NCBI GenBank assembly: GCA_964626935.1
Contig: CAZVIU010000003.1
Span: forward strand, 1-36,290
DNA from: an uncultured Gammaproteobacteria bacterium
GTDB lineage: Bacteria; Patescibacteriota; Patescibacteriia; CAZVIU01
Direction of reading: 5' to 3'
DNA: 36,290 nt
This document shows, piece by piece, positions 3,068 to 23,707 of this stretch. Position 1 is the stretch's first letter. Every line of letters starts with the position of its first letter. The notes under the pieces were generated by a model. It did no database searches, had not been told where the DNA came from, and saw only the letters and a program-made list of their open reading frames with translations. Both the position numbers and the translations under genes were made by a program.

Positions 3068-3135
3068 CCAGTTAGTATGAGGTAGTCTAAAGCAGAGACC
3101 CCACTACTTGCGATAAAGGCAATAGTGCAGTCAAA

Positions 3136-3168
3136 CCCCCCCCGATGTACATCGGGGGGGTTGTTTTT
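3136..3168 (+). terminator. Rho-independent terminator after surface-protein gene
   Basis: CCCCCCCCGAT-GTAC-ATCGGGGGGG is a perfect GC-rich hairpin (3136-3160) followed by TTGTTTTT. Confidence 0.85.
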
Positions 3169-3180
3169 CAGCTGTTTTTA

Positions 3181-3386
3181 GAGCCCGAAGCACCTTGGGC
3201 GCTTCTGGTTTTATTCTTGGGCCCGAAGCACCTTGGGCGCTTCGGGCCCGGCTATAGGCTTATCTTGTTTTGATCAGTTTATCGTGTTAATATCTTTGAG
3301 TCGGTTTGGTTATGAGCCCGAAGCGTCTTGGGCGTTTCGGATTTGGTTATATTTTCGGCCCGAAGCGCCCAAGGCGCTTCGGGCCC
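3181..3386. repeat. Four copies of palindromic REP-like element GCCCGAAGCRC-N4-6-GCGCTTCGGGC
   Basis: Copies lie at 3181-3208, 3219-3249, 3314-3340 and 3357-3386. Full copies read GGGCCCGAAGCACCTTGGGCGCTTCGGGCCC and are followed by a conserved RGCTAYNNGCT tail. Confidence 0.9.
3265..3293 (+). promoter_or_regulatory. Putative sigma70-type promoter for the first Wzy_C-TPR gene
   Basis: TTGTTT (3265-3270), a 17-nt spacer ending in TGT (extended -10), then TAATAT (3288-3293). This is a pattern match only. It would place REP copies 3 and 4 in the 5' UTR. Confidence 0.25.
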
Positions 3387-3392
3387 AGCTAT

Positions 3393-5744
3393 ATGCTAAA
3401 ATTTATTCGTAATCTTTTCTTATTTTCACCACTGATTTTTTTCGCTTACACGCCGTGGACTTTATATCCGGCGATCTTTGGCCGGACGATCATTTTTCAG
3501 ATCATTGTTGAAGTGATATTAGTTATAGTTATACTTGCTAATTTATTTGGGCGATCGTTAACCGGCGGAGAATTAGGAATTAAGCCCCGACGTAAAGCCC
3601 CGATATCTAAGATACAGGCTGCCGATCATAGTATCGGCACCCAAAGCGCTATTAGGAGCGCTTCGGGCTTTGTTTTGGGCCCGAAGCGCCTTGAGCGCTT
3701 CGGGCCCAGCTACTGGCTTCTCGGGATCCCAACCGAAGCGTCGGGAAATTATGAATTATGGGGACGAGCTAAGGAGATATTTTTTTCACCAATTGGGGCG
3801 AGCCTAATAATTTTTACTCTAGTTCAGTTTGTTTCTTATCTCTTTTCAGTTGATCAAGAGGCAAGCTTTTGGGGAAGTATGTCGCGAATGGATGGCATAT
3901 TTAGCTGGCTGCATATGGCAGCGCTTTTCTTTTTATTAGTTGCATTTTTGGATAAATCTGCCTGGTCCAAATTTTTAAAAATTAATGTTGTCATCGCTGG
4001 GGTCCTAAGTATTTTAGCCGTGATTCAGCATTTTTACGACCCTGTTCCTAAATATATAATTCAATCCGGTCGAGTTTATGCCACTTTTGGCAACCCAGTG
4101 TTTTTTGCCCTGTATTTATTGTTCACGATTTTTCTTACATTATATTTTTTATTGGGAGTTGAAACGAAACAAACATTGAGCCCGAAGCGCTATTATGAGC
4201 GCTTCGGGCTCAACAGACGACGCGTTGCGAAATATTTTTTTATCGGAATGCTCGCGATTTTACAAATAGTCGCGCTTTTTTGGACTGGGAGTCAGGGAGC
4301 AATTGGAGGATTTTTGGTTGGGATTTTGGTTCTTAGTTTAATAGGATTAATAAGGCAGTTCACTACCCCAGAGGTGGCGGCCACGCAAAGAATTAAGTTA
4401 GTGAGACTCATGGGAATTATAGGTATCGTCGGACTCATAAGTTTCATGGGTTTTTTCAAATTAGGTTTGGGGCAATTCGTTCGGTTACGCGAGCTTTCTT
4501 CAGTTGAAGGATTAGAAGCCCGAACAACTGTTTGGAAAATGGGTTTACAAGGATTTAAGGAACGGCCGATTTTGGGATTTGGCCCGTCAACTTTTGAATA
4601 CGTTTTTGATAAATATTATAATCCTGAACTTTTGCGGCACTCTTTTTACGAAACCGTTTCTAACAAGCCGCATAATATTTTTGTGGAAACGCTTGATCAT
4701 TTGGGGACTTTGGGATTTTTAAGTTATTTAGGTATATTTACCGCCGCCATCCTTGTTTTGCGAAAAATTAGAAAAATAGATTTTAAATTAGCTGTTATTG
4801 GTTTCGGACTTTTAGTCGCCTATCTTGGGGCCTTGCAATTTTCTTTTGATACAACTAATTCGTGGTATATGTTTGTGGTATTTTTGGCCTATATAACAGC
4901 AAGAGAACAAGAGAACAAGAGAACAAGAGAACAAGAGAACAGCGGGACTCTGTATCAGTCCGGTGGCCAGCCGATGGATACAAGACGGGCATCAAAACAT
5001 AAAAATAAACTTGTTTTCATGTTTTCATGTTTTAATGTTTTAGTGATAGCGGCGGCATTGTGGTTTGGCAACATTGAAGCTTGGGCGGCATCGGTACCCG
5101 GAGCCAGATCAAAAAATAAGTATTGGTTTCAAAAACCAATTAAGTGGGCCAATGAAGTTAGGAAAGCTATTGACGGGCCAAGTCCATATCATGATGAAAT
5201 TCGCGTAATTTTCGCGCAAGACTTGATCAAGTGGGAGGCGGGCGGCAATCTGCCAATGGTTGAGATTCAAGATCAAGTTAGTTTACTTAGGAGCAAGCTA
5301 GAAGAGAGCGCGAGTCAACACCCAAGTAATTTTCAATATCGTTTTACTTCGGCACAAATACAAGGCATTGAGGCAGAGAATTTTGACATGGCTAGATTAG
5401 GTGAAGCCATCAATTCCGCGCGTCAAGCGCGAGACTTATCACCGCGTCGTCAAGCGGCCTATTTAATTTTAGGCAAGCTTTTGCTTCAAAATGGAGATTT
5501 AAGAAGCGCCGAAGAGTTTGCGAATAAAGCGGTTGAGTTATATAAATTTGCCCCAGAATCGCACTGGTTTTTGGGCATAATCAAAAGCGCTGAAGAAAGA
5601 CTAGATGAAGCTGTTGCCGAATTCAGGCTGGCTCGTGAACTTGGCTACGATTTTAAGCCGCAAGAGATAATTTATTGGATGAGTATTAATAAAAAACGTG
5701 ATAGGGCGGAAGAGAATGATGAGCTAAGGTTGCTGCTTCAGTAA
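3393..5744 (+). CDS. O-antigen-ligase-family (Wzy_C) polytopic membrane protein with C-terminal TPR domain, paralog 1 (carries in-frame repeat insertions)
   Basis: The N-terminus MLKFIRNLFLFSPLIFFAYTPWTLYP aligns with paralogs 2-4. Shared motifs are SVDQEASFWGSMSRMDG, GNPVFFALYL, TGSQGA and ILGFGPSTFEYVFDKYYNPELLRHSFYETVSNKPHNIFVETL. The C-terminal TPR-like helices carry LSPRRQ and ESHWFLG. The ORF is open back to 3306 only because two REP copies are stop-free, so ATG 3393 is preferred. Confidence 0.8.
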   Translation: MLKFIRNLFLFSPLIFFAYTPWTLYPAIFGRTIIFQIIVEVILVIVILANLFGRSLTGGELGIKPRRKAPISKIQAADHSIGTQSAIRSASGFVLGPKRLERFGPSYWLLGIPTEASGNYELWGRAKEIFFSPIGASLIIFTLVQFVSYLFSVDQEASFWGSMSRMDGIFSWLHMAALFFLLVAFLDKSAWSKFLKINVVIAGVLSILAVIQHFYDPVPKYIIQSGRVYATFGNPVFFALYLLFTIFLTLYFLLGVETKQTLSPKRYYERFGLNRRRVAKYFFIGMLAILQIVALFWTGSQGAIGGFLVGILVLSLIGLIRQFTTPEVAATQRIKLVRLMGIIGIVGLISFMGFFKLGLGQFVRLRELSSVEGLEARTTVWKMGLQGFKERPILGFGPSTFEYVFDKYYNPELLRHSFYETVSNKPHNIFVETLDHLGTLGFLSYLGIFTAAILVLRKIRKIDFKLAVIGFGLLVAYLGALQFSFDTTNSWYMFVVFLAYITAREQENKRTREQENSGTLYQSGGQPMDTRRASKHKNKLVFMFSCFNVLVIAAALWFGNIEAWAASVPGARSKNKYWFQKPIKWANEVRKAIDGPSPYHDEIRVIFAQDLIKWEAGGNLPMVEIQDQVSLLRSKLEESASQHPSNFQYRFTSAQIQGIEAENFDMARLGEAINSARQARDLSPRRQAAYLILGKLLLQNGDLRSAEEFANKAVELYKFAPESHWFLGIIKSAEERLDEAVAEFRLARELGYDFKPQEIIYWMSINKKRDRAEENDELRLLLQ
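3644..3707. repeat. REP-like palindromes (one partial, one full copy) inside paralog-1 CDS
   Basis: 3644-3669 is AAGCGCTATTAGGAGCGCTTCGGGC (partial). 3677-3707 is GGGCCCGAAGCGCCTTGAGCGCTTCGGGCCC (full). They are translated in-frame as ..SAIRSASGFVLGPKRLERFGPSYW. Confidence 0.9.
4178..4211. repeat. REP-like palindrome inside paralog-1 CDS
   Basis: GAGCCCGAAGCGCTATTATGAGCGCTTCGGGCTC is read in-frame as LSPKRYYERFGL, in a loop that is shorter in paralogs 2-4. Confidence 0.9.
4901..4940 (+). repeat. Perfect octamer array (AAGAGAAC)x5 inside CDS
   Basis: This is a direct read of five exact units, translated REQENKRTREQEN. Confidence 0.95.
5013..5042 (+). repeat. Octamer array GTTTTCAT/GTTTTAAT x3.7 inside CDS
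   Basis: GTTTTCAT GTTTTCAT GTTTTAAT GTTTTA is translated FMFSCFNVL. The same array type occurs at 31392-31424 and, reverse-complemented, at 25549-25580. Confidence 0.9.
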
Positions 5745-5786
5745 AAATAAGCCATGGATTAATTGCGAATTGCAGTTTTCAGATTG

Positions 5787-5828
5787 CAAATTATAAATCT
5801 GAAATTTTAAATCATAAATTTGAAATTA
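5787..5828 (+). repeat. Heptamer array (NAAATYN)x6 abutting start codon of paralog 2
   Basis: CAAATTA TAAATCT GAAATTT TAAATCA TAAATTT GAAATTA ends 3 nt before ATG 5832. Confidence 0.8.
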
Positions 5829-5831
5829 TTT

Positions 5832-8054
5832 ATGTCTTTAGAAAAAGTGTGTTTTAAAATTTTGCGTCTTGGTGTTTATGCGAGCCTGGTCGCGCCTTTT
5901 TTTGTATTTCCGTGGACAATTTATCCGTATCTTTATGCCAAGGCATTATACATTAATATTATTGTAGCTGTAATGCTGCCATTTTACGTAGTTTTATTAA
6001 CCACAAATCCGGATTTTCGACCTAAAAAAAATCCCCCAACTATTGCCGTAATAGCATTTTTTCTTATCTTAATAGTTTCTAGTATTTTTAGTCCTGATCC
6101 GGGGCGGGCTTTTTGGGGAACACAAGAAAGATCAGCCGGACTATTTTTTCTGGCGCATTACTTCTTATTATTTTTAATCGCCAGCTCTATTTTTCGTAAC
6201 GAGGAGAGCTGGAAGAAACTTTTAATATTTTCTCTTTTTATAAGCATACTTGTCGCTGGCGGAACTTGGTGGGATATTGCCATGGAAAAAATCTGGAAGC
6301 CCGGAGCAGGGACAAGAACTGGCGGCACCTTGTCTAACCCTATTTTTTATGCCGCCTATCTCTTATTTCACATCCCCCCATCCCTTTGGTTAAGTTTCTC
6401 GGGTCGTAAAAAGGCGCATAAAATTGCTTGGCTGGCCGTTTTTATTTTTCTTAGTATTTCTTTGTTTTATACGCTTACTCGTGGCGCCCTACTTGGTTAC
6501 TTTGGTATGTTTTTCTTTGGTTTAATTTTAACTGGCTTATGTGTACAGAGATACCGAAAATGGATGTTTTTAGCTTCTAGTTTGATAGTAGTTTTTTTTG
6601 CCTTGATTTTTTTATTACGAACCAACCCGGTAATTTTAAAAAATCCGATATTAGGACGCCTCGCTTCGATTTCGCCCAAAGAAATAACCGCCCTAACCCG
6701 GCTAGAAGCTTGGCAAATTGCTTGGTATGGCTTTAAAGAAAAACCGATTTTAGGCTGGGGGCCGGAAAATTATTACGCTATTTTTAATAAATTTTATAAT
6801 CCAAAACTCTTGCGTTTTTCATATTATGAAACCTGGTCTGATAAACCGCACAGCATTGTTTTTGAAATTTTATCAACAACTGGTTTTTTGGGTCTAGCGG
6901 CTTATCTTGCGATCTATGGGTTGATCCTTGCTCATGGTTTTAAAAAATTGCGTAAAAAAACCATATCGGCAAAATTAACCATTCCGCTTTTAATGATTTT
7001 TGTCGGGTTTTTTATACAAAATCTTTTTGGTATTGATACAGTGAGTACCTACCTGATGTTTTATATCTTATTGGCTTTTGCCGGGTTTATTTTATATCCT
7101 ACAAATACTATAAGTCCCGTGAGTTTTGTAAGATCCGTAAACCCGATAGGAAATGTAAAACGTCCGGTAATTCTTGCCGGTATTGCAACAAGCATTCTTT
7201 CTCTTGTTTCAATCTGGCAATGGAACATCAAACCTGCTTACGCAGGCCATCTTACAGCCAAAGCAACAACCGTGGAGAATTTTGGTGCGGCTACGGATCT
7301 TTGGCAAAAAGCGTTAGATATTAAACATCCGTGGGCTTACGATGCCCAAGTTGAATACTTAAAAGGCATCACGAGAATAGTTCAGCGATCAGCAAATACG
7401 CAGTTTGAAGACTTAAAACCACTTCTCTTGCGCGGCGAGATGGCGGCAGAAGACCTAACAGCCAGTCACAAGCAAAATGCCTATTTTAATTATTTAGCCG
7501 GTAGATTTTATAGTGAATGGGGCAAGTTTGAATTTAAATATTTTGTTGAAGCAGAAAAATTATTTAAAAAATCTATTGAATTGAGCCCGCGTCGTCAGCA
7601 GCTTTTTTATGGTTTGGGTAGAATGTATTTGCTTTCCGGAAGAACTGACCAATCCTTAAAAGTATTTGAAGATTTAGTTAAGCTTGATCCCGGGGTTGAT
7701 GAATCTCACTGGTTTTATGGTTTGGCCCTGCGTCAAGCTGATCGCGGAGTCCAAGCCTACGAAGAGATAAAAGAGGCCATTCGTTTAGGATACAATGCGG
7801 TTGATTCAGGAGAGGTATTAGTTTTAGCCGAAGTAGCCACAAAAGAAAATGACCTCAAGGCGCTTCAAAAAATTTATGAAAACGCGATTGCCATTGATCC
7901 TAAGAATGGTGATTGGCACGCCCGGTTGGCGGCGTTGTATTTAGAATTGGGAAGAAAGGATGAGGCGCGCAAATTAGTTATCAGGGCAGTAGAGTTGGAC
8001 CCGACGCTTAAAGAAGAAGCAACCAAATTTTTGAAATTATTAGAAATTCAGTAG
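5832..8054 (+). CDS. Wzy_C (O-antigen-ligase family) membrane protein with C-terminal TPR domain, paralog 2
   Basis: Motifs are SPDPGRAFWGTQERSAG, TRGALLG and ILGWGPENYYAIFNKFYNPKLLRFSYYETWSDKPHSIVFEIL, with about 10-12 hydrophobic helices. TPR motifs are ELSPRRQQLFYGLGRMYLLSGR and DPKNGDWHARLAALYLELGRKDEARKLVIRAVELDP. ATG 5832 is preferred over the track's TTG 5820. Confidence 0.85.
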   Translation: MSLEKVCFKILRLGVYASLVAPFFVFPWTIYPYLYAKALYINIIVAVMLPFYVVLLTTNPDFRPKKNPPTIAVIAFFLILIVSSIFSPDPGRAFWGTQERSAGLFFLAHYFLLFLIASSIFRNEESWKKLLIFSLFISILVAGGTWWDIAMEKIWKPGAGTRTGGTLSNPIFYAAYLLFHIPPSLWLSFSGRKKAHKIAWLAVFIFLSISLFYTLTRGALLGYFGMFFFGLILTGLCVQRYRKWMFLASSLIVVFFALIFLLRTNPVILKNPILGRLASISPKEITALTRLEAWQIAWYGFKEKPILGWGPENYYAIFNKFYNPKLLRFSYYETWSDKPHSIVFEILSTTGFLGLAAYLAIYGLILAHGFKKLRKKTISAKLTIPLLMIFVGFFIQNLFGIDTVSTYLMFYILLAFAGFILYPTNTISPVSFVRSVNPIGNVKRPVILAGIATSILSLVSIWQWNIKPAYAGHLTAKATTVENFGAATDLWQKALDIKHPWAYDAQVEYLKGITRIVQRSANTQFEDLKPLLLRGEMAAEDLTASHKQNAYFNYLAGRFYSEWGKFEFKYFVEAEKLFKKSIELSPRRQQLFYGLGRMYLLSGRTDQSLKVFEDLVKLDPGVDESHWFYGLALRQADRGVQAYEEIKEAIRLGYNAVDSGEVLVLAEVATKENDLKALQKIYENAIAIDPKNGDWHARLAALYLELGRKDEARKLVIRAVELDPTLKEEATKFLKLLEIQ

Positions 8055-8160
8055 AAATTAGTTAGAAATTAAATAGAAATTAAGTATAAATAAATAGAAA
8101 TTAGCTCGCTCACGCTCGCGAAATTAGGTTACAACCTAATTTCTACTTAATTTCTACTTC
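8041..8160. repeat. Composite spacer element: phased TAGAAATT direct repeats, central hairpin, inverted AATTTCTA repeats
   Basis: TAGAAATT lies at 8041, 8052, 8063, 8074 and 8095 (11-nt phase, with degenerate TATAAATA at 8085). The hairpin AAATTAGGTT-AC-AACCTAATTT is at 8121-8142. AATTTCTA lies at 8138 and 8149. The array overlaps the paralog-2 stop codon TAG at 8052-8054. Confidence 0.85.
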
Positions 8161-8186
8161 GTTTCGTGAAGCTAATTTTTTTATTT

Positions 8187-10430
8187 ATGTTGGAAACCCG
8201 TCTCTTGCGATCAATTAAGATTTTATTGTACGCGGTACTTTTTGCTCCAGCCGTAGTAACTTACTCAACTGCTTATCCTTTTTTACATGGCAAGGTTTTC
8301 TGGATTGAGATATTCATAGAATTGCTGCTCGGTTTGTACTTAGTTTTAGTTTTAACCAGCAAAGATTATTGGCCAAAGAAAACGCCGCTTTTTTGGGCTA
8401 TGAGCGCGTTTATAGGCTCACTTGTTATTTCAACGATTTTTTCAGTTGATCGATCAATCAGTTTCTGGGGTGATTGGTCCCGTATGACCGGGCTTATTCT
8501 TTATCTACATCTTTTTGCATTTTTCATCATTTTTTCATCAGTTATAAAAAAAGATTATGAGCGACGCAACTATTTGATATTTTTTAGCTTACTCGGCACG
8601 GTTCTATCTATATTCGCCTGGATTCAAAGATACAATACAAAATTTTTAAAAGCAGTTTGGGTGGGTGGCCGTGTCGGTAGCACCATAGATAATCCGGCCT
8701 TTTTCGCGATTTTTTTAATATTCATAATTTTCATCAATCTCTGGTTAGCTTCTGTTGTTAGTAAAAAATACCGATTATTATTTTTTCTAAGCGCAATTTT
8801 TAATTTTCTAACCGTTTTTATTACCCAAACTAGAGGTGTTATTTTGGGTCTTTTTGCCGGAATGGCCATCTTTGCTTTTTTTAGAGTTATTAAGAGCACG
8901 CTTAAGTGGAAAATAGGCTTGGCAATATTTTTGGCATTGATCTTTGCCGCATTTATTTTTAAACCAACATATAATATTTTAACGCGCGCGCCTGGCCTTG
9001 GCAGAGTCTTAGAAAGTACCCTAATAGACTCCACCGCACAAACACGCCTCTTAACCTGGAAAATAGCAACGCGTGCCTGGCTCGCGCGACCAATTACTGG
9101 CTGGGGACACGAAGCCTTTTATGCGGCATTTAATAAATTCTATAAACCGGAATTTGTTCGTTTTTCTTTTTCTGAAACCTGGTTTGATAAAAGCCATAAT
9201 ATTTTTTTAGACCTTTTGTCAATGAACGGGCTCTTGGGTTTTTTTAGCTATATTTCTATTTTTATTTTTGGTTATATTGTAATAAGTCGAAGCAAAAAGT
9301 TGCCGATGGATTCGACGAGCTCGCCACAAGTGGTTACACAAAATAATGCATATATTAACAAATCACTAGTGCCACTTTATATCTCGCTAATTACGACCTA
9401 TTTCGTTGGAAATTTTTTTGAGTTTGATACGCCGGCCTCGCTTTTAGCCATATTTTTTATATTTGCCCTGATTTATTCATATAGCAACACAAATGATGCG
9501 AATGAGGCACGTTTGACGCCAGCGCAAATTGGGCGGCCAATACAGCCGTCAGTTGTCGCCCTCATCATTATAATTATCAGCATATTGTTATGGTTTGTGC
9601 CGATTAAAAGCGTTATTGCTTCCCGCGGTCTTGATCGCGCCAGTGACCTAATAAGAAATAATTTTGCCCAAGGCGCCAGCGCTTATCGCGAAATAATTGT
9701 AAAAAATAGGCGTTTTTCCGAGCCAGCAGCTCTGGAATACGCCATGCGCCTAAATCAGCTTTTATTAACTGATGACGAGGCCGTAATTAAATATAAAAAC
9801 GACTTTGATTTGACCATGAATAAACTTGAGGATAGCGCGAGGCGCCATAAATTTGATGTAAATTACGTTCTGGCCTATAGTCTTTTAGCCAATACCAGAG
9901 CCACAATGGAAACTGATTTTGCCAAAAAGGCTGAAAAATTATTAGAAGAAAATCGCTTGATGATTAATCCAGGTCGTCAGCAGGTTCTTCTCATGCTTGG
10001 AGAGACAAAACTATTATTAGACAAAAACGATGAAGCGATAAATATTTTAAAACAAGCGCAAGACTTGGCGCCAACTGCCCGTGAAATTAGTTATCGACTA
10101 GCCATTGTTTATTTTGCTAGTGGACTTGAAGAAGAAGGATTCGCGCAACTTAAGAAAGCCAAAATTTTAGGCATGGCTGATATCGGCGCGCAGCCGCTCT
10201 TAGTTTTAATAAGTGTAAACGCTTCCAGGGGTAATTGGGTAAAAGTCGCGGAACTTTACGAAAAATCTGTTAAGCTTGAGCCGAATAATGCCAAACTCTT
10301 TGCCCAAATGGCCACAGCTTATGCTACAATCGGGAATAAGAAACGAGCCCGAGAAGCTGTGGCGCGCGCTGTAGAACTTGACCCGAAATTGAAAGGAGAA
10401 GGAGAACAATTTTTAAGACAAGTTAAATAA
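8187..10430 (+). CDS. Wzy_C (O-antigen-ligase family) membrane protein with C-terminal TPR domain, paralog 3
   Basis: Motifs are SVDRSISFWGDWSRMTG, TRGVILG and ITGWGHEAFYAAFNKFYKPEFVRFSFSETWFDKSHNIFLDLL. The TPR motif is LEPNNAKLFAQMATAYATIGNKKRAREAVARAVELDP. ATG 8187 (MLETRLLRSIKILLYAV) aligns with the paralog N-termini. The track starts at GTG 8166. Confidence 0.85.
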   Translation: MLETRLLRSIKILLYAVLFAPAVVTYSTAYPFLHGKVFWIEIFIELLLGLYLVLVLTSKDYWPKKTPLFWAMSAFIGSLVISTIFSVDRSISFWGDWSRMTGLILYLHLFAFFIIFSSVIKKDYERRNYLIFFSLLGTVLSIFAWIQRYNTKFLKAVWVGGRVGSTIDNPAFFAIFLIFIIFINLWLASVVSKKYRLLFFLSAIFNFLTVFITQTRGVILGLFAGMAIFAFFRVIKSTLKWKIGLAIFLALIFAAFIFKPTYNILTRAPGLGRVLESTLIDSTAQTRLLTWKIATRAWLARPITGWGHEAFYAAFNKFYKPEFVRFSFSETWFDKSHNIFLDLLSMNGLLGFFSYISIFIFGYIVISRSKKLPMDSTSSPQVVTQNNAYINKSLVPLYISLITTYFVGNFFEFDTPASLLAIFFIFALIYSYSNTNDANEARLTPAQIGRPIQPSVVALIIIIISILLWFVPIKSVIASRGLDRASDLIRNNFAQGASAYREIIVKNRRFSEPAALEYAMRLNQLLLTDDEAVIKYKNDFDLTMNKLEDSARRHKFDVNYVLAYSLLANTRATMETDFAKKAEKLLEENRLMINPGRQQVLLMLGETKLLLDKNDEAINILKQAQDLAPTAREISYRLAIVYFASGLEEEGFAQLKKAKILGMADIGAQPLLVLISVNASRGNWVKVAELYEKSVKLEPNNAKLFAQMATAYATIGNKKRAREAVARAVELDPKLKGEGEQFLRQVK

Positions 10431-10569: not shown

Positions 10570-12786
10570 GTGAGTACCGAAAAACTATCAAAATATCTTT
10601 ACAGATTCATAGTTATTGGTCTGTATGCGGCATTACTCATGCCCTTTATTTATATTGATAATCTTATTTTTCCATTTATCACCGGAAAGGTTTTTATTTT
10701 TCAAATTTTGATTGAAGTCTTATTGGCAGCTTGTTTGCTCCTGATTTATTTAGACAGAAGTTTCCTGCCTAAACAGAGCCTTGTTCTCATCTCGGTTTTT
10801 TTATTTTTAATAAGCATAATTTTATCAACAATTTTTTCATATGACCCTGATCGCAGTTTCTGGGGTAATTATGAACGAATGAGCGGAACATTCACACTTC
10901 TGCATTTTGTCGCTTATTTTTTCATACTCGTTGGTATTTTACGCACGCCGCTTACCTGGAAACGGTATCTTACAGCCGCTGTAGCGCTCTCCGGAGTACA
11001 GGCGGTTATTGGTATAGCGCAATACTATTCTACGAATTTACTTTTAACAGCTGGTGGCGGAAGAATTTGGGGCACGCTGGGTAATTATATCTATTTAGCT
11101 ACTTATGCGATTTTTCACATTTTTATTGGCGCGATGCTTTTGGCGGAAGCAGGCAACAAATCGCCATCCAGTAAGAGCAAGTGGTCAAGGGTGGTTTTTG
11201 GCGGATTGATCTTCTTAAATGTGGTTGTGCTTTATCTCTCGGGCACGCGAGGCGGATATGTTGGTTTTTTATCAGGCTTGAGTTTGGTTGCTATTATTTC
11301 TGTTTTTGTAGCCAAAAATAAGAAAGTAAAATTAATTTTTATCAGCGCCCTCATTCTGGTAATTCTCTTCATGGTTATGGGGCGTGTTTATCGCAGCACT
11401 AAATTTGCGCGGAGCCTTCCCATTGTTGGGCCGCTTTTAAATTTAGACATTAAAGCCGATACTGGTTTTACTCGTTTGATCGGTTGGCAATTAGCCCTAA
11501 AGGGTTGGCAAGATAAACCAATTTTCGGTTGGGGACCAGAAAATTACTATTACGCCTTTAATAAGCATTTCGATCCTAGATCACTTGAAAGAGGGTATTA
11601 TGAAACTTGGTTTGATCGGCCGCACAATATAGTCTTTGATGTTTTATCTACCCAAGGGTTAGTCGGGCTCTTAACTTATCTAAGTATTTTTGTAAGTATT
11701 TTTATAGTTTCTTGGCGCGCTTGGCGACAAAAAATAATTTTAGGGTGGCAATTTGCCCTGTCCTTAGGGGGCGTGGGAGCATACTTTACACAAAATCTTT
11801 TCGTTTTTGATCAGCCAAGTTCTTTTCTTTTATTTTATTTGTTTATTGCTTATTTTCATTCATTGGCTGACGGAGAGCGTAAAAGTATTGAGATGGTTAA
11901 AAACGAGAATCAGAAACGTTCAAGCATTTATTTGGCGATTTTATTGGGGGTAGGGGTTTTGTGGCTGGGATATCAAAGCGTCCTAAAGCCATGGAAAGCC
12001 GGGGTTACCTCTATTGCGGCTGAAAGACTACTCACGACTGATTTTAATCAAGCTTTTGCTATATACCGGCGTGCCACCGAAATAGAAACACCATATAAAG
12101 ATGATATACAGGTTAGTTTAGCCAGAATCGTGCATGAGCGAGCCGGAACTGACGCGATCTTTATTCGCGATAATAAAGAAAAAATAGATTTTACCGTGAG
12201 CGAAGTTAAAAAATTCATTGAAATTCACCCTAACGATGTTTATCCATATATGGCCCTGGCGCAACTCTACGGACTTTTAGCCATTATTGATCCACAATAT
12301 TTTGCGCCGGCTGAAGAAGCCCTTGCCAGGGCCGCGCTTCTCTCGCCAAAACGGCAGCAGATCTATTTTGTCTGGGCCAGGTTTAAGGTCATGCAAAAAG
12401 ACTACACGCAAGCTCACGAGCTAATACAAAAAACCATAGATTTCGATCCTCAAGTTTCAGAAACTTATTGGTATCAAGCGTTAATTTATAATTCCGAAGC
12501 CAATGATGCTAAGGCCTTAGAATACATGAAAGAAGCAAGAAAAAGAGGTTATGGGTGGAAAAATACCACGGAAGCATTTTTATTCGGCAGATTGCTCGAG
12601 ATAAACAAAGATTATGATCAAATACCGCAAGTTTTAAAAGAGATCATTAGCTTAGATTCTAAGGCGGAAAACTATTATTATCTAGCCACTGCTTATCAGC
12701 GCTTGGGGAAAAACGAAGAAGCTCAAAGAGCGCTGGGAAAAGCAGTGGAGACGGACCCAAATATTTTACAAAAAATGCAAAAGTGA
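10570..12786 (+). CDS. Wzy_C (O-antigen-ligase family) membrane protein with C-terminal TPR domain, paralog 4
   Basis: Motifs are SYDPDRSFWGNYERMSG, TRGGYVG and IFGWGPENYYYAFNKHFDPRSLERGYYETWFDRPHNIVFDVL. TPR motifs are LLSPKRQQIYFVWARF, ETYWYQALIY and AENYYYLATAYQRLGKNEEAQRALGKAVETDP. The start is GTG. Confidence 0.85.
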   Translation: MSTEKLSKYLYRFIVIGLYAALLMPFIYIDNLIFPFITGKVFIFQILIEVLLAACLLLIYLDRSFLPKQSLVLISVFLFLISIILSTIFSYDPDRSFWGNYERMSGTFTLLHFVAYFFILVGILRTPLTWKRYLTAAVALSGVQAVIGIAQYYSTNLLLTAGGGRIWGTLGNYIYLATYAIFHIFIGAMLLAEAGNKSPSSKSKWSRVVFGGLIFLNVVVLYLSGTRGGYVGFLSGLSLVAIISVFVAKNKKVKLIFISALILVILFMVMGRVYRSTKFARSLPIVGPLLNLDIKADTGFTRLIGWQLALKGWQDKPIFGWGPENYYYAFNKHFDPRSLERGYYETWFDRPHNIVFDVLSTQGLVGLLTYLSIFVSIFIVSWRAWRQKIILGWQFALSLGGVGAYFTQNLFVFDQPSSFLLFYLFIAYFHSLADGERKSIEMVKNENQKRSSIYLAILLGVGVLWLGYQSVLKPWKAGVTSIAAERLLTTDFNQAFAIYRRATEIETPYKDDIQVSLARIVHERAGTDAIFIRDNKEKIDFTVSEVKKFIEIHPNDVYPYMALAQLYGLLAIIDPQYFAPAEEALARAALLSPKRQQIYFVWARFKVMQKDYTQAHELIQKTIDFDPQVSETYWYQALIYNSEANDAKALEYMKEARKRGYGWKNTTEAFLFGRLLEINKDYDQIPQVLKEIISLDSKAENYYYLATAYQRLGKNEEAQRALGKAVETDPNILQKMQK

Positions 12787-12856: not shown

Positions 12857-14014
12857 TTAATATTTGTATAGCTTAACCGTTTTTATAAGCATTTTGTCAA
12901 AGTTGAATTTTTCTTGGAATTGCCTCGCGGTAGCGTGGCTTAAATTGTTGCGTAACTCTTGATTATCAATAAATTTTTTAAGAGCATTTACAATTGCCCT
13001 TGAATCAGCTGGCGGCACTAAAAGGCCGCTTGTTTCATTTTCTAACATTTCTGGTATGGCGCCCACATTTGTCGCTATAATTGGCACACCGGCTTGTATA
13101 GCTTCAAGCAAGGCATAAGGCAGACCCTCTTTTACCGAAGGGAGCACAAAGAGGTCAAAGGCCTTTAGATAGCGAGCTGCATCAGGCAGGGAGCCGATAA
13201 GATAAAAATTTTGCAATCCATAATTCTTAATTCTTAATTCTAAATTCTCGCGTTCTGGGCCAGAACCGATAATGATGAAACTTGGTTCGACCCCTTCTTT
13301 CTTAAGTACGGCTGCTGCATCAATGAGATATTCAATACCCTTGGTTTTATAAAGATTGGCGATGGTGATAATCCACAGCGGGGAATTAAGAATTGAGAAT
13401 TTAGAATTAAGCTTTGCACGCGCCTCATCGCGTGAAAGAAAACTAATTGGATTGATGCCGTGGGGGATTATGGCAAGTTTTTCCTGATCGCAGATTTTAT
13501 TTTTTAGCGCGGCGGCATAATCATATTGAGAGAGCGTAATTATTCTATCGTGAATTTTGCCAGCAACGCGCTCCATAAATACATATAGTTTTTTGCGCCA
13601 CCAAGGCAGAGGTTCGTTAAAAACCCAGCCGTGGGCAGTGTAAATTAATTTAGGTTTTAGGTTGTAGGTTGTAGGTTGTAGGAATTTTTTAGCCACTGTG
13701 CTGATGAGGCTGGCTTTGGAGCTATTTAGATGGACGATGCTGGGCTGCTCCTTTTTAAAAAATTGTGCTAGCTCAAAAATTGCCGCGATATCTTTAAGCG
13801 GATTAATTTCACGGACGAGATTTTTAAAAGTATGCGTATTAATATCCGCTTCTTTGCATTTTTGTATCAATTCCTGACTACCCTCCGCGCCAGATGCAAC
13901 AGTAATATCAAACTCATCTTTTAAGGCAGTTGCCAAATCAAAAACATAGGCTTGCGCGCCACCCCATTCGCCTTGAGTTACCACATAAATTAGCTTTAAT
14001 TTTGCTGGTTGCAT
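12857..14014 (-). CDS. GT4-family (GT-B) glycosyltransferase
   Basis: The N-terminus is KLIYVVTQGEWGGAQAYVFDLA. The C-terminal donor-binding motif is FVLPSVKEGLPYALLEAIQAGVPIIATNVGAIPEMLENETSGLLVPP (EX7E). Confidence 0.9.
   Translation of the reverse strand: MQPAKLKLIYVVTQGEWGGAQAYVFDLATALKDEFDITVASGAEGSQELIQKCKEADINTHTFKNLVREINPLKDIAAIFELAQFFKKEQPSIVHLNSSKASLISTVAKKFLQPTTYNLKPKLIYTAHGWVFNEPLPWWRKKLYVFMERVAGKIHDRIITLSQYDYAAALKNKICDQEKLAIIPHGINPISFLSRDEARAKLNSKFSILNSPLWIITIANLYKTKGIEYLIDAAAVLKKEGVEPSFIIIGSGPERENLELRIKNYGLQNFYLIGSLPDAARYLKAFDLFVLPSVKEGLPYALLEAIQAGVPIIATNVGAIPEMLENETSGLLVPPADSRAIVNALKKFIDNQELRNNLSHATARQFQEKFNFDKMLIKTVKLYKY
13221..13248. repeat. Heptamer array TAATTCT x4 inside GT4 CDS
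   Basis: TAATTCT TAATTCT TAATTCT AAATTCT is read on the minus strand as ENLELRIKNY. Confidence 0.9.
13383..13411. repeat. Heptamer array GAATTAA x4, inverted partner of 13221-13248, inside the same CDS
   Basis: GAATTAA GAATTGA GAATTTA GAATTAA G is read on the minus strand as KLNSKFSILNS. It lies 134 nt from the inverted array. Confidence 0.9.
13651..13682. repeat. Heptamer array TAGGTTK x4.6 inside GT4 CDS
   Basis: TAGGTTT TAGGTTG TAGGTTG TAGGTTG TAGG is read on the minus strand as QPTTYNLKPK. Confidence 0.9.
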
Positions 14015-14076: not shown

Positions 14077-14140
14077 GCGTTTAGCGCATAGCGGTTAGCG
14101 TTTAGTTAATTGTTCTAAACCCTAAACCCTAAACCCTAGG
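14077..14140. repeat. Two heptamer arrays in divergent intergenic region
   Basis: GCGTTTA GCGCATA GCGGTTA GCGTTTA lies at 14077-14104. CTAAACC CTAAACC CTAAACC CTAGG lies at 14115-14140 and ends at the TTG start at 14141. Confidence 0.85.
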
Positions 14141-15139: not shown

Positions 15140-15220
15140 TAATTAAGTCATTGGTCACTAAGTCATTGAGACAATTTTAAATGACTGTTAATTACTTAAT
15201 TACTTAATTACTTAATGACT
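15140..15220. repeat. Inverted octamer arrays spanning the spacer between SDR and GT4 genes
   Basis: The left arm is TAATTAAGTCATT..CTAAGTCATT. The right arm is AAATGACT GTTAATTA CTTAATTA CTTAATTA CTTAATGA. CTTAATTA is the reverse complement of TAATTAAG. The element begins right after the stop codon at 15137-15139, and ATG 15215 lies in its last unit. Confidence 0.85.
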
Positions 15221-16495
15221 CGAGTTGTAATCTTCAGCACCTTCTACGAGCCCTTTATGTCTGGGGCCGAACGAATGGTTAAAGAAGTAGTAGAGCGGTT
15301 GCAAGAGCGCTATTCGTTTATAATTGTTACTTCTCGTTTAAGACGCAATTTGCCCCAGTTTGTTGAGGTCGAACATCGACGCACTTTGCAGCGAGCAGGA
15401 GCGAGCGAAAGAAGGAGGTTCGACCTCGATGACAGTCGAATTAAAATTGTGCGGATCGGTTTTGGTTGGAAATTTGATAAATTTTTGTATCCAATTCTCG
15501 CGCCGTTTTACGCATTAAGATATAGGCCGAAGATTGTTCACGCGATAATGGAGAGCTACGCGGGAATCGCGCTTTTAGTTTATTCGTATCTCGCCAAACT
15601 TTCAAAACCCTTAATTCTTAATTCTCAATTCTTAATTCTAACCTTACGGCGGAGATCGAATCTCGACGCACTCTGCAGCGAGCAGGAGCGAGCGAAAGAA
15701 GGAGATTCGATCTCGCATAAAAATGTATTCACCATTCTAACACTCCAGAGCGGTGACCTTGACCTACCAGAAAAACAGGCGCGGATTCCTAGGTGGCTTT
15801 GGAAGCGAATACATTGTGCGCCCAATCTCATAGTTTCTATTGGAAATTCAATGGCCGAGCGTGCAAGAAAGTTGGGAGCAAAGAGTGTTCGAGTTATTCC
15901 CAACGGTGTTAATCTTACGGAGGTCCGACCTCCAAATATACGGAGGTCGGACCTCCGTCAACATCATATTGTATGTGTTGCCCGTCTTTCTCCTGAAAAG
16001 GGAATTGAATATCTAATCGAAGCAATGCCCTTCGTAATAGCGCAATACCCTGATGCCGAGCTGGTTTTGGTGGGAAATGGCGCATTGAGAGAAAAGCTAC
16101 AAGCTACAAGCTACAAGCTACAAGCTCATGTTGAGTTTAGAGGCACGTTATCTCATGAGAAAACTCTTGAAGAAATGGCCACCTCTGATATTCTCGTTTT
16201 GCCATCTTTAGCCGAGGGCATGGGCATTGTGTTAGTCGAAGCTCAAGCGCTCGGCGTTCCAGTAATCGGTACTAATGTTGGCGGTATTCCAGATGTTATT
16301 GAGCACGAAAGAACAGGCCTGCTCGTGCCGCCACATGACCCGCGCGCAATCGCGCAAGCAGTCATTCGCTTATTTCATGATCACGAACTAAGAGAACGCA
16401 TGGTTGTTGAAGCGGAAACGCGTCTTCTTAAATTTGATTGGCAGAAGATCGCGGAAGAATATAGGAACATTTATGATCAGGTATCAAGCGTATAA
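15215..16495 (+). CDS. GT4-family glycosyltransferase carrying five in-frame repeat insertions
   Basis: The C-terminal motif is ILVLPSLAEGMGIVLVEAQALGVPVIGTNVGGIPDVIEHERTGLLVPP, and ARLSPEKGIEYLIEA is present. The N-domain is interrupted by repeat-encoded segments (see repeats at 15365, 15611, 15652, 15917 and 16094). Confidence 0.85.
   Translation: MTRVVIFSTFYEPFMSGAERMVKEVVERLQERYSFIIVTSRLRRNLPQFVEVEHRRTLQRAGASERRRFDLDDSRIKIVRIGFGWKFDKFLYPILAPFYALRYRPKIVHAIMESYAGIALLVYSYLAKLSKPLILNSQFLILTLRRRSNLDALCSEQERAKEGDSISHKNVFTILTLQSGDLDLPEKQARIPRWLWKRIHCAPNLIVSIGNSMAERARKLGAKSVRVIPNGVNLTEVRPPNIRRSDLRQHHIVCVARLSPEKGIEYLIEAMPFVIAQYPDAELVLVGNGALREKLQATSYKLQAHVEFRGTLSHEKTLEEMATSDILVLPSLAEGMGIVLVEAQALGVPVIGTNVGGIPDVIEHERTGLLVPPHDPRAIAQAVIRLFHDHELRERMVVEAETRLLKFDWQKIAEEYRNIYDQVSSV
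15365..15427 (+). repeat. 63-nt hairpin element, copy 1 (GAGGTCGAAC-N43-GTTCGACCTC)
   Basis: It has a 10-bp perfect stem and is translated EVEHRRTLQRAGASERRRFDL, with element position 1 at codon position 1. Confidence 0.9.
15611..15640 (+). repeat. Heptamer array TTAATTC x4.3 inside CDS
   Basis: TTAATTC TTAATTC TCAATTC TTAATTC TA is translated LILNSQFLIL. Confidence 0.9.
15652..15714 (+). repeat. 63-nt hairpin element, copy 2 (GAGATCGAAT-N43-ATTCGATCTC)
   Basis: The core CGACGCACTYTGCAGCGAGCAGGAGCGAGCGAAAGAAGGAG matches copy 1, which differs at one position within it (the Y). It is read in a different frame, as RRSNLDALCSEQERAKEGDSIS. Confidence 0.9.
15917..15957 (+). repeat. Two adjacent copies of palindrome ACGGAGGTCSGACCTCC inside CDS
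   Basis: Copies lie at 15917-15933 and 15940-15957 and are translated TEVRPPNIRRSDLR. The arms resemble the stem of the 63-nt element. Confidence 0.9.
16094..16127 (+). repeat. Heptamer array (AAGCTAC)x4 perfect plus a partial unit, inside CDS
   Basis: This is a direct read, translated KLQATSYKLQA. Confidence 0.95.
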
Positions 16496-16572: not shown

Positions 16573-17880
16573 ATGAAGATTTTAATAGCAACAGGAATTT
16601 ATGGAGGTTTGGGAGATATAGGTGGCCCGGCAATATATTCAGAGTCTCTTGCGCGAGAGTTGATTAAGCGCGGGCACAAAGTGACCGTTGTTACTTATTC
16701 TAGTTCATATAAATCCGAAATCCGAAATCCTCCGCCAAAGGCGGATCAGTCTCTGACTGAGAAATCCGAAACAAATCCGAAATCAGAAATTCAAAACTCT
16801 AATTTTTTATTAGTACGAGTTCAACGCGAATTACCACTGCTATTGCGGTATAGTTTTTATAAATTGACAGCACTCTGGCACGGATGGCACGCAGATATCA
16901 TATACGCTCAAGATTCAGTTTCTGCAGGATTTCCTACAATGTTGGCTAATCTAATTTTGCGAAAACCATTTATTTTGAAAGTTATTGGCGATTATGCGTG
17001 GGAGCAGTATCAAAATCAAAAATCAAAAATCAAAAATCAAAAATTAGGTATGTTGCCAAGCAGTATTGATCATAATGGTTTGTCGCTAGACGATTTTTTA
17101 AATGAAAAACCCAGTGGCAAGATTAAGGCTTTTTGGAATATTGAAAGATGGGTGGCAAGACGCGCCAACAAGATTATTGTGCCGAGCAATTATCTAAGAG
17201 GCGTGGTGCAGAAGTGGGGGATTCAATCAGCCAAGATTGAGGTGATTTATAATTCTTTTGACTGGAGCTCATTACAAAACTCGATCTCTAAAGTTCCGGT
17301 CGAGACCCCAGAGGCCACACCGCATGATACTATCTATTCAGTCGGTCGTCTTGTTCCGTGGAAAGGATTTGATACGTTGATTGAAATAATGCCCGAGGCA
17401 TTGAAAGAAAAACCAAATACAGAGCTCGTGATCTACGGCGATGGACCGATGCGTGAAGGTTTAAGATTTAAGATTAAAGATTTAGGATTAGAGACTCATG
17501 TGAAACTTTTGGGAAGAATAGATCACGCGAAGCTCTTGGAAGCCTTGCAGGGTGAGCGCAAGTTTTTTGTGCTTAACAGTTCGTACGAAGGTATGTCTCA
17601 TCAAATTTTAGAGTGTCAGGCTTTGAAAATTCCTTGCGCGGTTAGCCGCGTCGGCGGAAATCCGGAAATTGTGGAGAACGAAAAAACTGGTTTGCTTTTT
17701 GAATATAATAATAAAGAACAGATCAAAAACGCAATCATACGACTGCTTGACGAGCAAGCACTCGTCGAACATATAAGAGAAAAAGCCTATGCACAGATTA
17801 AAGATCGGCACGATTTTAATCAAATGATTGAAAAAACGATAACCGTACTCCAATCCACACTATCATACTATATAGTATGA
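16573..17880 (+). CDS. GT4-family glycosyltransferase carrying in-frame repeat insertions
   Basis: The N-terminus is KILIATGIYGGLGDIGGPAIYSESLARELIKRGHKVTVVT. GRLVPWKGFDTLIE is present. The C-terminal motif is FVLNSSYEGMSHQILECQALKIPCAVSRVGGNPEIVENEKTGLLFE. Confidence 0.88.
   Translation: MKILIATGIYGGLGDIGGPAIYSESLARELIKRGHKVTVVTYSSSYKSEIRNPPPKADQSLTEKSETNPKSEIQNSNFLLVRVQRELPLLLRYSFYKLTALWHGWHADIIYAQDSVSAGFPTMLANLILRKPFILKVIGDYAWEQYQNQKSKIKNQKLGMLPSSIDHNGLSLDDFLNEKPSGKIKAFWNIERWVARRANKIIVPSNYLRGVVQKWGIQSAKIEVIYNSFDWSSLQNSISKVPVETPEATPHDTIYSVGRLVPWKGFDTLIEIMPEALKEKPNTELVIYGDGPMREGLRFKIKDLGLETHVKLLGRIDHAKLLEALQGERKFFVLNSSYEGMSHQILECQALKIPCAVSRVGGNPEIVENEKTGLLFEYNNKEQIKNAIIRLLDEQALVEHIREKAYAQIKDRHDFNQMIEKTITVLQSTLSYYIV
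16711..16800 (+). repeat. 90-nt composite module: AAATCCG array, two hairpins, AAATCNG array; exactly 30 codons
   Basis: AAATCCG AAATCCG AAATCCT is followed by TCCGCC-AAA-GGCGGA, then TCAGTC-TCT-GACTGA, then AAATCCG..AAATCCG AAATCAG AAATTCA AAACTCT. It is translated KSEIRNPPPKADQSLTEKSETNPKSEIQNS. Confidence 0.9.
17011..17044 (+). repeat. Heptamer array (CAAAAAT)x4 perfect, preceded by CAAAAT, inside CDS
   Basis: This is a direct read, translated QNQKSKIKNQK. Confidence 0.95.
17460..17494 (+). repeat. Degenerate heptamer array TTTAAGA x5 inside CDS
   Basis: TTTAAGA TTTAAGA TTAAAGA TTTAGGA TTAGAGA is translated LRFKIKDLGLE. Confidence 0.8.
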
Positions 17881-23686: not shown

Positions 23687-23707
23687 AAGCTACAAGCTAT
23701 AAGCTAT
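23687..23707 (+). repeat. Heptamer array AAGCTAY x3 abutting asnB-like start codon
   Basis: AAGCTAC AAGCTAT AAGCTAT ends 2 nt before ATG 23710. Confidence 0.9.

Follow-up and report, generated by a model that had tools for sequence, protein, structure and literature searches.

Our analysis concerned a family of GC-rich palindromes lying in and just upstream of one membrane-protein gene of an uncultured bacterium, on metagenomic contig CAZVIU010000003.1; the window is this whole contig of 36,290 nt, with 41.6% GC. The gene, which we call paralog 1 (forward strand, 3393–5744, or from 3312 with the alternative start; the open reading frame, ORF, opens at 3306), encodes a Wzy_C (O-antigen-ligase-like) polytopic membrane domain followed by a C-terminal TPR region. 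It is the first of four paralogs in tandem. Paralogs 2, 3 and 4 (5820–8054, 8166–10430 and 10570–12786) likewise encode Wzy_C membrane proteins with C-terminal TPR, each 27% identical to paralog 1. Two in-frame inserts of palindromic sequence lie in paralog 1, the larger of which recurs at an unrelated intergenic locus.

Seven GC-rich palindromes, as counted in the initial annotation, were found at 3183, 3221, 3316, 3358, 3642, 3679 and 4180. A search with the arm GCCCGAAGCGC, allowing up to one mismatch, gave 11 matches, all at 3183–4209, against an expected 0.56 (the mean of shuffled sequences; 0 of 100 shuffles reached 11). Confinement of the copies to paralog 1 and its upstream region, also claimed earlier, held up: the remaining 35 kb of the window contained no convincing copy, and relaxing the search to two mismatches added two unconvincing sites. 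Each of the seven folds at −14.6 to −31.8 kcal/mol, and the units are 27–38 nt long with stems of 11–16 bp, which places them within the 20–40 bp GC-rich stem-loops that characterise repetitive extragenic palindromes (REPs). Their basic module is a hairpin rich in GC, (T)GGGCCCGAAGCGCC-TTG-GGCGCTTCGGGCCC(A). Copy 3642 (3640–3667), earlier placed at 3644 and taken for a partial one, has a complete 11-bp stem with one A·C mismatch; its loop is TATTAGGA, against TATTATGA in copy 4180 of the same variant.

The palindromes are modules of larger mosaic units rather than free 31-mers, so the repeated unit proposed at first was too small. A dimer recurs three times, composed of a weak hairpin (−14.6, −14.6 and −15.9 kcal/mol), a T-rich spacer of 10–17 nt, a strong hairpin (−28, −29.3 and −31.5 kcal/mol) and a CCAGCTAYWGGCTT tail with the consensus CC(A/G)GCTAYWKGCT. 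Dimer a is intergenic (3181–3264, forward strand, 61% GC), with its weak hairpin at 3183–3209 (−14.6 kcal/mol), its strong one at 3219–3249 (−28 kcal/mol) and the tail CCGGCTATAGGCTT. Dimer b (3314–3400, forward strand) has a weak hairpin with two G·T wobbles at 3316–3342, then the spacer, a strong hairpin at 3357–3387 and the tail CCAGCTATATGCTA. The third dimer (3640–3722, forward strand) lies within the coding sequence, where variant B (3640–3667) is followed by the variant A hairpin. Further into the gene is a solo hairpin (4176–4213, forward strand) with perfect 16-bp arms TTGAGCCCGAAGCGCT/AGCGCTTCGGGCTCAA and the loop ATTATG, folding at −31.8 kcal/mol; it is the variant with an 8-nt loop region, as is the first hairpin of the third dimer.

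Loop orientation varies among these units. In copy 3358 the loop is flipped (CAA for TTG) while its flanks keep their orientation. Because of this, copy 3358 (3357–3387) is 97% complementary over 31 nt, loop included, to copies 3221 (3218–3248) and 3679 (3676–3706). The minimum-energy fold of 3125–3400 pairs copy 3221 with copy 3358, enclosing 3250–3356. Similar flips, of TTA and TAA, occur in the related family of contigs L085 and L114 described below.

The third dimer belongs to a composite whose core spans 3584–3745 on the forward strand (or 3585–3746, one base being ambiguous), 162 nt or 54 codons. The core has 60% GC, against 40% in the host coding sequence. Its terminal inverted repeats are CCCCGACG and CGTCGGG, that is, CCCGACG at both ends in inverted orientation, and it contains hairpins at 3621–3638 (GCCGAT..ATCGGC), 3640–3667 (variant B), 3676–3708 (variant A, −31.5 kcal/mol) and 3727–3746. 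The two ends pair in the predicted fold and close a multi-hairpin structure of −85 kcal/mol (z = −4.8), so that the core has the form of a small element with terminal inverted repeats, as MITEs (miniature transposable elements with inverted repeats) do.

Window positions 3577–3757 match positions 1793–1973 of contig L093 (Ga0114944_1000955) at 91.7% identity over 181 nt, with unrelated flanks. In L093 the segment occupies the spacer that separates a CAP-domain gene from the next gene, which is co-directional. That contig and L164, which comes from Joint Genome Institute (JGI) sample 3300022563, are 100% identical; the window's own JGI record is from that sample too, and proteins of both the window and L093 are also listed from NCBI. 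The tetranucleotide signature of L093 correlates with that of the window at r = 0.86, where pieces of the window against the rest gave 0.74–0.88 and other loci gave at most 0.69, save L114, a locus of the second family described below, at 0.82. From the shared sample and the tetranucleotide match, L093/L164 and the window are likely parts of one genome, in which two or more copies of the composite are very probably present, one between genes and one inside a gene. Across the window and L164, about 44 kb of this presumed genome, there are nine hairpins at two loci.

A third contig, L166 (Logan SRR22387907), which is from a relative, is syntenic with L093 through genes for CAP, an unknown protein, a DsbA-like protein, a Rieske protein and adenylosuccinate synthetase; the last is 79% identical as protein, and DNA identity is 69–78%. 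The L166 spacer 3′ of the CAP gene (3219–3241) reads GAATTAA AAATTAT GAATTAA without a GC-rich core, and is an empty, or emptied, orthologous site. Since the site in paralog 1 and the intergenic one in L093 are occupied and the orthologous one in L166 is empty, insertion or loss is the simplest reading. Two composite copies at unrelated sites plus an empty syntenic site is the pattern that marks MITE dispersal, here at the minimum possible number.

We mapped the borders of the core by comparing the two occupied sites with the empty L166 site and with four unoccupied (AGAATTA)4 arrays of the window. In paralog 1 the core splits an (AGAATTA)n heptamer array on the forward strand, with the left half GAATTAG GAATTAA (3570–3583) abutting the core and the right half AAATTAT GAATTAT at 3746–3759. 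The unoccupied arrays, of about four units, are at 13220–13247 (minus strand), 13383–13410, 15611–15638 (minus strand) and 18443–18477. Overall the AGAATTA/GAATTAA heptamer has 15 matches in the window against 1.4 expected, with arrays at five sites or more. The core lies at the same position within the heptamer unit at both occupied sites (AG^AATTA or A^AAATTA), the only two available, and its placement inside an array at both may reflect a target preference.

Flanking target duplications, whose tabulation the initial annotation had proposed, were absent from both occupied sites: measured against the empty L166 site and the heptamer register, no bases are duplicated. We had considered a 176-nt unit flanked by a duplicated GAATTA in the window and GAATTGA in L093, and dropped it because the heptamers, as the L166 site and the remaining (AGAATTA)4 arrays show, pre-exist as units of an array. 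A core of 162 nt has symmetric ends and is a multiple of three in length, and it explains both sites better. By this comparison of sequences, the GAATTRA and AAATTAW motifs beside the core are units of the heptamer array, not ends of the element or target duplications. We also set aside the idea that TAT at 3750–3752, where L093 has TAA, is an adaptive removal of a stop codon, as the position is in the heptamer flank, outside the core.

The core encodes most of a 63-aa extension of a first loop of the protein, and insert 2, of 39 nt (4176–4214), encodes 13 residues, LSPKRYYERFGLN, that lengthen a second short K/R-rich loop. Predicted insert peptides include GPKRLERFGPSYW and SPKRYYERFGL. Removing the 162 nt and the 39 nt in silico leaves one uninterrupted ORF, whose loops then read ...GGELGIKNYELWGRAKE... 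and ...ETKQTRRRVAKYFF..., with lengths close to those of paralogs 2–4. The initial annotation had all copies downstream of 3306 read in a single phase. This is true of copies 3316, 3358, 3679 and 4180, which read (G/S)PKR..RFG(P/L/F), and not of copy 3642, which is one phase off and reads TQSAIRSASG. No forward phase of the palindrome alone contains a stop, and three of six frames of the 181-nt segment are open, so that uninterrupted reading is expected in about half of insertions with a length divisible by three; the openness of the inserts is partly a by-product of their GC-richness. Their in-frame state is best read as survivorship combined with properties of the element, not as proof of a peptide function.

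We aligned 36 homologues, namely paralog 1 and 35 others including paralogs 2–4. In each of the others, about 6 residues fall in the 63 columns of insert 1 and 0–6 in the 13 columns of insert 2. As stated earlier, paralogs 2–4 have no palindrome copies and have short loops at both coding-sequence sites; 31 further homologues are like them in this, and both extensions are absent from all 35 others. The inserts thus differ from an ordinary conserved loop, the alternative named in the initial annotation, for which the peptide should occur in orthologues and the repeat nowhere else: 0 of 35 homologues has the extensions, and the repeat recurs in L093. At each of the 10 invariant and 17 nearly invariant columns of the alignment we listed the residue of paralog 1 itself, and all are kept.

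By hydropathy, both inserts fall in short K/R-rich loops between hydrophobic helices. The corresponding loops of the paralogs, where a crude helix scan resolves them, have 11–13 and 5–15 residues, and those of paralog 1 are expanded to 77 residues (12 K+R) and 23 residues (7 K+R). Both would be cytoplasmic by the positive-inside rule. An AlphaFold2 model of paralog 1 has a mean pLDDT of 82.5 and a pTM of 0.85, with the inserts as low-confidence coil. Segments with pLDDT below 50 include residues 56–64 and 73–120, which overlap insert 1 (62–124), and 257–262, just before insert 2 (262–274); blocks of 10 residues over insert 2 average 55 and 73. Given the confident model, the retention of conserved residues and the location of the inserts in loops, the host fold is predicted to be undisturbed, the inserts forming disordered extensions of its loops.

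The best non-self protein match to paralog 1 is 28% identical, and the protein collection searched held no orthologue, so the gene itself cannot be compared with and without its inserts. Named homologues come from Kaiserbacteria, Paceibacterota and Patescibacteria; from these, and from the low identity of the best match, the host is probably a bacterium of the candidate phyla radiation (CPR; Patescibacteria), with a genome of about 41% GC, and the gene one without sequenced close relatives. Both termini of paralog 1 are short: about 45 TPR residues of paralogs 2–4 are missing from its C-terminus (5600–5744), and its N-terminus is about 12 residues shorter than theirs given the start at 3393. 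Such shortening may mean that the invaded copy is under relaxed constraint.

Upstream, the ORF runs back to 3306 through two palindrome copies, as the initial annotation had noticed, and in public annotation the gene (P0001, 810 aa) is called from ATG 3312, on the left edge of dimer b and inside the third copy. The initial annotation had put two copies between a putative promoter and ATG 3393. Copies 3316 and 3358 are indeed there, whereas the promoter failed a consensus scan and ATG 3393 is itself inside the tail of dimer b, which reads TAT-ATG-CTA where the other tails read TAC-TGG-CTT and TAT-AGG-CTT. The start codon is therefore supplied by the element, whichever of 3312 and 3393 is used, and dimer b is either 5′ untranslated region (UTR) or N-terminal coding sequence. 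Shine-Dalgarno motifs are rare among genes here and do not discriminate between the two starts.

We searched for relatives of the repeat with pattern scans of 185,579 species-representative genomes and a metagenome collection, which gave 70 and 92 loci, 162 in total. Nearly all were rejected as single hairpins with unrelated loops in DNA of 55–74% GC, likely chance or terminator hairpins. Related loci among the matches were in low-GC DNA only: L085, L093, L114, L128, L144 and perhaps L062. A viral contig scan and a phage BLAST for the repeat gave no match. Rfam gave none at the gathering threshold; at the E-value threshold it gave sub-threshold generic hairpins only (microRNA precursors; ncr1175 at 36.6 bits against a cut-off of 60). 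An alignment of 15 copies, drawn from the window and six further contigs, has 93.9% of its stem cells paired. Compensatory changes occur at four outer pairs (CCC/GGG in the window and CTC/GAG in L093 are an example), and 0 of 500 shuffles reached the covariation score. This fits selection, or templated repair, for a hairpin in DNA or RNA.

Four of these contigs carry a second MITE-like family, whose members measure about 128 nt (about 152 nt where 24 nt are inserted internally): L144 at 208–335 and 1271–1398, L085 at 920–1047, L114 at about 700–850 and L128 at 240–356 and 942–1025. Its members have TAGAAGCGGAT terminal inverted repeats and TA at both ends, their flanks differ from copy to copy, and their centre is a hairpin shared with the window family, GGGCCCGAAGCGCC-TTA-GGCGCTTCGGGCCC. 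ORF finders read this family as ...LGPKRLRRFGPKN... at false N-termini; in L114 and L144, ORF starts read GPKRLRRFGP. A degenerate copy of the hairpin also lies in L166 at 3907–3937, in a non-orthologous spacer. Occurring in the 162-nt core, the 128-nt family and L166, the central hairpin is a module that several mosaic elements of this lineage have in common. L062 (Parachlamydiaceae metagenome-assembled genome, JBDHQB010000002.1) has a single hairpin at 7183–7209, in DNA of 40% GC and without TTGG/CCAG flanks, whose 27-mer GCCCGAAGCGCCTTGGGCGCTTCGGGC equals the window family consensus; the match may be chance, or the hairpin may be a relative, distant or transferred.

Among known systems we compared the family with REPs and the structures built from them, bacterial interspersed mosaic elements (BIMEs) and REPINs (Di Nocera et al. 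2013, PMC3733652; Bertels & Rainey 2011, PMC3116915). REPs too are GC-rich stem-loops of 20–40 nt, often dimers 20–100 bp apart or clusters mixed with other motifs, and the combination of a hairpin module with other motifs recalls REPs in BIMEs. They lie mostly just 3′ of ORFs between co-directional genes, as do the L093 copy and dimer a. Stems here are longer, at 11–16 bp against 6–9 bp in most REP families. More than 90% of members of the REP superfamilies have an unpaired GTAG or CGTC motif at one end (PMC3733652). In our small sample such a tag is inconsistent: the tail CCAGCTAC gives a minus-strand GTAG 2 nt from the stem in copies 3679 and L093b, and ATAG in 3221 and 3358, and nothing comparable was found in copies 3183, 3316, 3642 and 4180 or in the copies of L085, L114, L128 and L144. 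Nor was a gene for a REP-associated tyrosine transposase (RAYT) seen among the genes scanned in the window and in L164/L166.

MITEs share with the core a non-coding size like its 162 nt, terminal inverted repeats, folded ends and presence or absence at orthologous sites; classical MITEs, however, duplicate their target site, which the core does not, and the analysis turned up no parent insertion sequence for the core. Since the GTAG/CGTC tag is inconsistent and target duplication absent for the core, we file the element as REP/MITE-like and as a member of neither class. The lack of target duplication, the hairpin-forming ends and a fixed short target motif would be compatible with a non-autonomous IS200/IS605-type (Y1) element, as judged here from two sites only.

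The analogy with Rickettsia palindromic elements (RPEs) drawn in the initial annotation is apt, and applies to intragenic REPs as well. RPEs, as summarised from Ogata et al. 2000 in PMC10969869, are single units of about 100–150 bp with a conserved peptide, both intergenic and in frame within genes. Intragenic REPs occur as singles, dimers or groups encoding 20–82 aa in several phyla, and many at annotated N-termini may be extragenic (PMC3733652). Like our family, RPEs are palindromic and non-autonomous, their peptide is tolerated on surfaces and in loops, and one gene may hold several insertions. Here, by contrast, the units are mosaics of 27–38-nt GC hairpins, one of them read in another phase, in an unrelated host lineage and with a single invaded gene known; the likeness is in mode of occurrence, in frame and in loops.

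The reading that we favour, at a probability of roughly 70%, is that of a dispersed, non-autonomous palindrome family of REP/BIME-like or MITE-like type with tolerated in-frame insertions in paralog 1. The 162-nt composite would have entered an (AGAATTA)n array, leaving the target unduplicated, in the first short loop of cytoplasmic type, and a single 39-nt hairpin the next such loop; two more dimers lie in the 5′ region. The gene would stay intact with insert lengths that are multiples of three, an open phase that is hydrophilic or basic, and loops outside the helical core, and its protein presumably has two disordered loop extensions. Movement would be by transposition rather than another copying process. 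The absence of target duplication, the hairpin ends and the same target position, at two sites only, point to a hairpin-recognising single-strand enzyme (Y1/HUH; RAYT-like or IS200/IS605-like) as the possible mobiliser. The earlier proposal that a palindrome colonised paralog 1 without inactivating it thus gains support from the L093 copy, the empty L166 site, the intact frame, the conserved residues and the AlphaFold2 model.

Several observations weigh against this reading. The composite is known in two copies only; no further one appeared in the genome or viral scans, and the metagenome scan gave L093 alone. An exhaustive phmmer search of 1.84 billion proteins with the insert peptide returned the window's own protein only (the other match, P0082, was a spurious repeat protein). 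Scanned genes of the window and of L164/L166, about 60 kb of related sequence, included no transposase domain. The placement of L093/L164 in the genome of the window is likely, short of proof, and the empty L166 site could be a secondary deletion instead of the ancestral state. With three of six frames open, the uninterrupted frame is by itself weak evidence of selection, and both translation of the inserts and function of paralog 1 we infer from sequence. All window copies lie within 1.1 kb, which local duplication could explain.

That last point opens an improbable alternative, local amplification only, by slippage, template switching or gene conversion in place, with the L093 copy due to a single recombination or transfer. 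Seven copies in 1.1 kb and none in the other 35 kb suit it, as do the loop flips (CAA/TTG, TAA/TTA) within unchanged flanks, which show template switching inside palindromes, and a slippage-prone genome, with nine perfect period-7/8 arrays against 0 expected. It does not account for a 162-nt core at an unrelated locus with sharp borders and an identical heptamer position, or for related hairpins in different mosaic elements at non-orthologous sites on several related contigs. We also consider it very unlikely indeed that palindromic repeats led to a chimeric or collapsed assembly of this region. Short-read assemblers do err at inverted repeats, and L071, the sole other record of the region, is 100% identical but from the same sample and not independent; yet the frame is continuous, homology to the paralogs is colinear across all junctions, and samples 3300009691 and 3300022563 each yielded the composite core, in a different context, by independent assembly.

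Two further accounts concern function. The hairpins could be selected cis-regulatory RNA, those upstream acting as terminators, attenuators or mRNA stabilisers and those in the coding sequence slowing or pausing expression, with mobility incidental. A T-rich run follows the first hairpin of each dimer, with terminator-like flags at 3183–3200 and 3318–3340; the folds are very stable (z = −9.2 for 3125–3400 and −4.8 for the core), and stem pairing is kept through compensatory changes. REPs elsewhere are also reported as 3′UTR regulators (PMC3733652; bioRxiv 10.64898/2026.03.23.713779). However, no Rfam family matched at threshold, maintenance of the palindrome at the DNA level explains the pairing equally well, and stem mismatches are A·C on the forward strand in some copies and G·T in others, favouring neither transcribed strand. 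Function leaves the presence and absence at the L093/L166 site unexplained, and we hold this account unlikely as the main one, although a regulatory role is compatible, as a secondary effect, with a dispersed palindrome family. Quite unlikely, too, is that paralog 1 is a decaying, redundant pseudogene in which insertions are tolerated junk and the open frame an accident. Three other paralogs could cover its function, it alone is invaded, its termini are shortened and half of the element's frames are open anyway; against this stand a stop-free ORF of 783–812 codons in a gene of 40% GC, the complete set of conserved residues, the confident model, and insert lengths in multiples of three, with loops similar to the short ones of the paralogs once the inserts are removed.

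Palindromic repeats that colonise genes in frame are on record for Rickettsia, Opitutus, Coxiella, enterobacteria and cyanobacteria, so the phenomenon is already known; what is new here is the repeat family, the host lineage, the mosaic structure and the apparent association with heptamer arrays. In the literature searched we found no description of such colonisation in small-genome, uncultivated Patescibacteria-like lineages. The hairpins matter for annotation, since gene callers extend ORFs through them (as in P0001, L114 and L144) and thereby add N-termini that are spurious, and peptides labelled 'hypothetical', to protein catalogues from metagenomes. Were a target preference for heptamer arrays to hold across the genome, two kinds of repeat-driven variation in surface-glycan genes would be connected. 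A bolder and doubtful extension is that the core homes to (AGAATTA)n arrays, which are part of a wider set of period-7/8 arrays of roughly four copies in the glycosyltransferase and ligase genes of this surface-glycan locus, and that slippage-prone arrays and hairpin insertions, instead of being tolerated junk, together form a diversification or phase-variation system for surface-glycan genes in a CPR-type bacterium.

Period-7/8 tandem arrays with many different units, mostly of 3.5–5 copies, occur throughout the contig. Examples are at 4900–4941, 13221–13248, 13383–13411, 13651–13682, 14115–14138, 15188–15220, 15610–15639 and 16094–16126, with further ones at 17012–17044, 17456–17489, 18448–18476, 18693–18729, 22738–22767, 23006–23036 and 23687–23707. 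They are found just 5′ of start codons and within the coding sequences of glycosyltransferases and ligases. Of perfect arrays with three or more copies there are six of period 7 and three of period 8, against 0 in 50 shuffles, and none of period 4–6 or 9–12. An array of about 4 copies (1 + 3 units) preserves the frame and a change of one unit either way shifts it, as in phase-variable contingency loci. No period-7/8 arrays were found in L093, L114 and the other related loci scanned.

The remainder of the contig is a glycan-biosynthesis cluster, with glycosyltransferases, epimerases and an asparagine-synthase-like gene. Ahead of dimer a, at 3137–3168 on the forward strand, a hairpin with a perfect 12-bp stem (CCCCCCCGATGT/ACATCGGGGGGG) followed by TTGTTTTT has the look of an intrinsic terminator for the 979-aa gene upstream; the hairpin at 3621–3638 inside the coding-sequence element is similar to its CCGAT..ATCGG core. 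The spacer between paralogs 2 and 3 (8033–8165) contains about six copies of an 11-nt TAGAAATTA-type repeat, then a hairpin, GAAATTAGGTT/AACCTAATTTC, and inverted TAATTTCTACT repeats, and looks like another small element with inverted-repeat borders. A CTAATTTCTACT array in L085 (426–469) is similar to its 11-nt repeats. The spacer upstream of paralog 2 (5760–5820; TAATTGCGAATTGCAG...GAAATTTTAAAT...) shares 84% identity over 61 nt with a stretch of L166 (436–496) that is intergenic and has different neighbour genes, and may be a promoter or regulatory motif that has been conserved, or a further small repeat.

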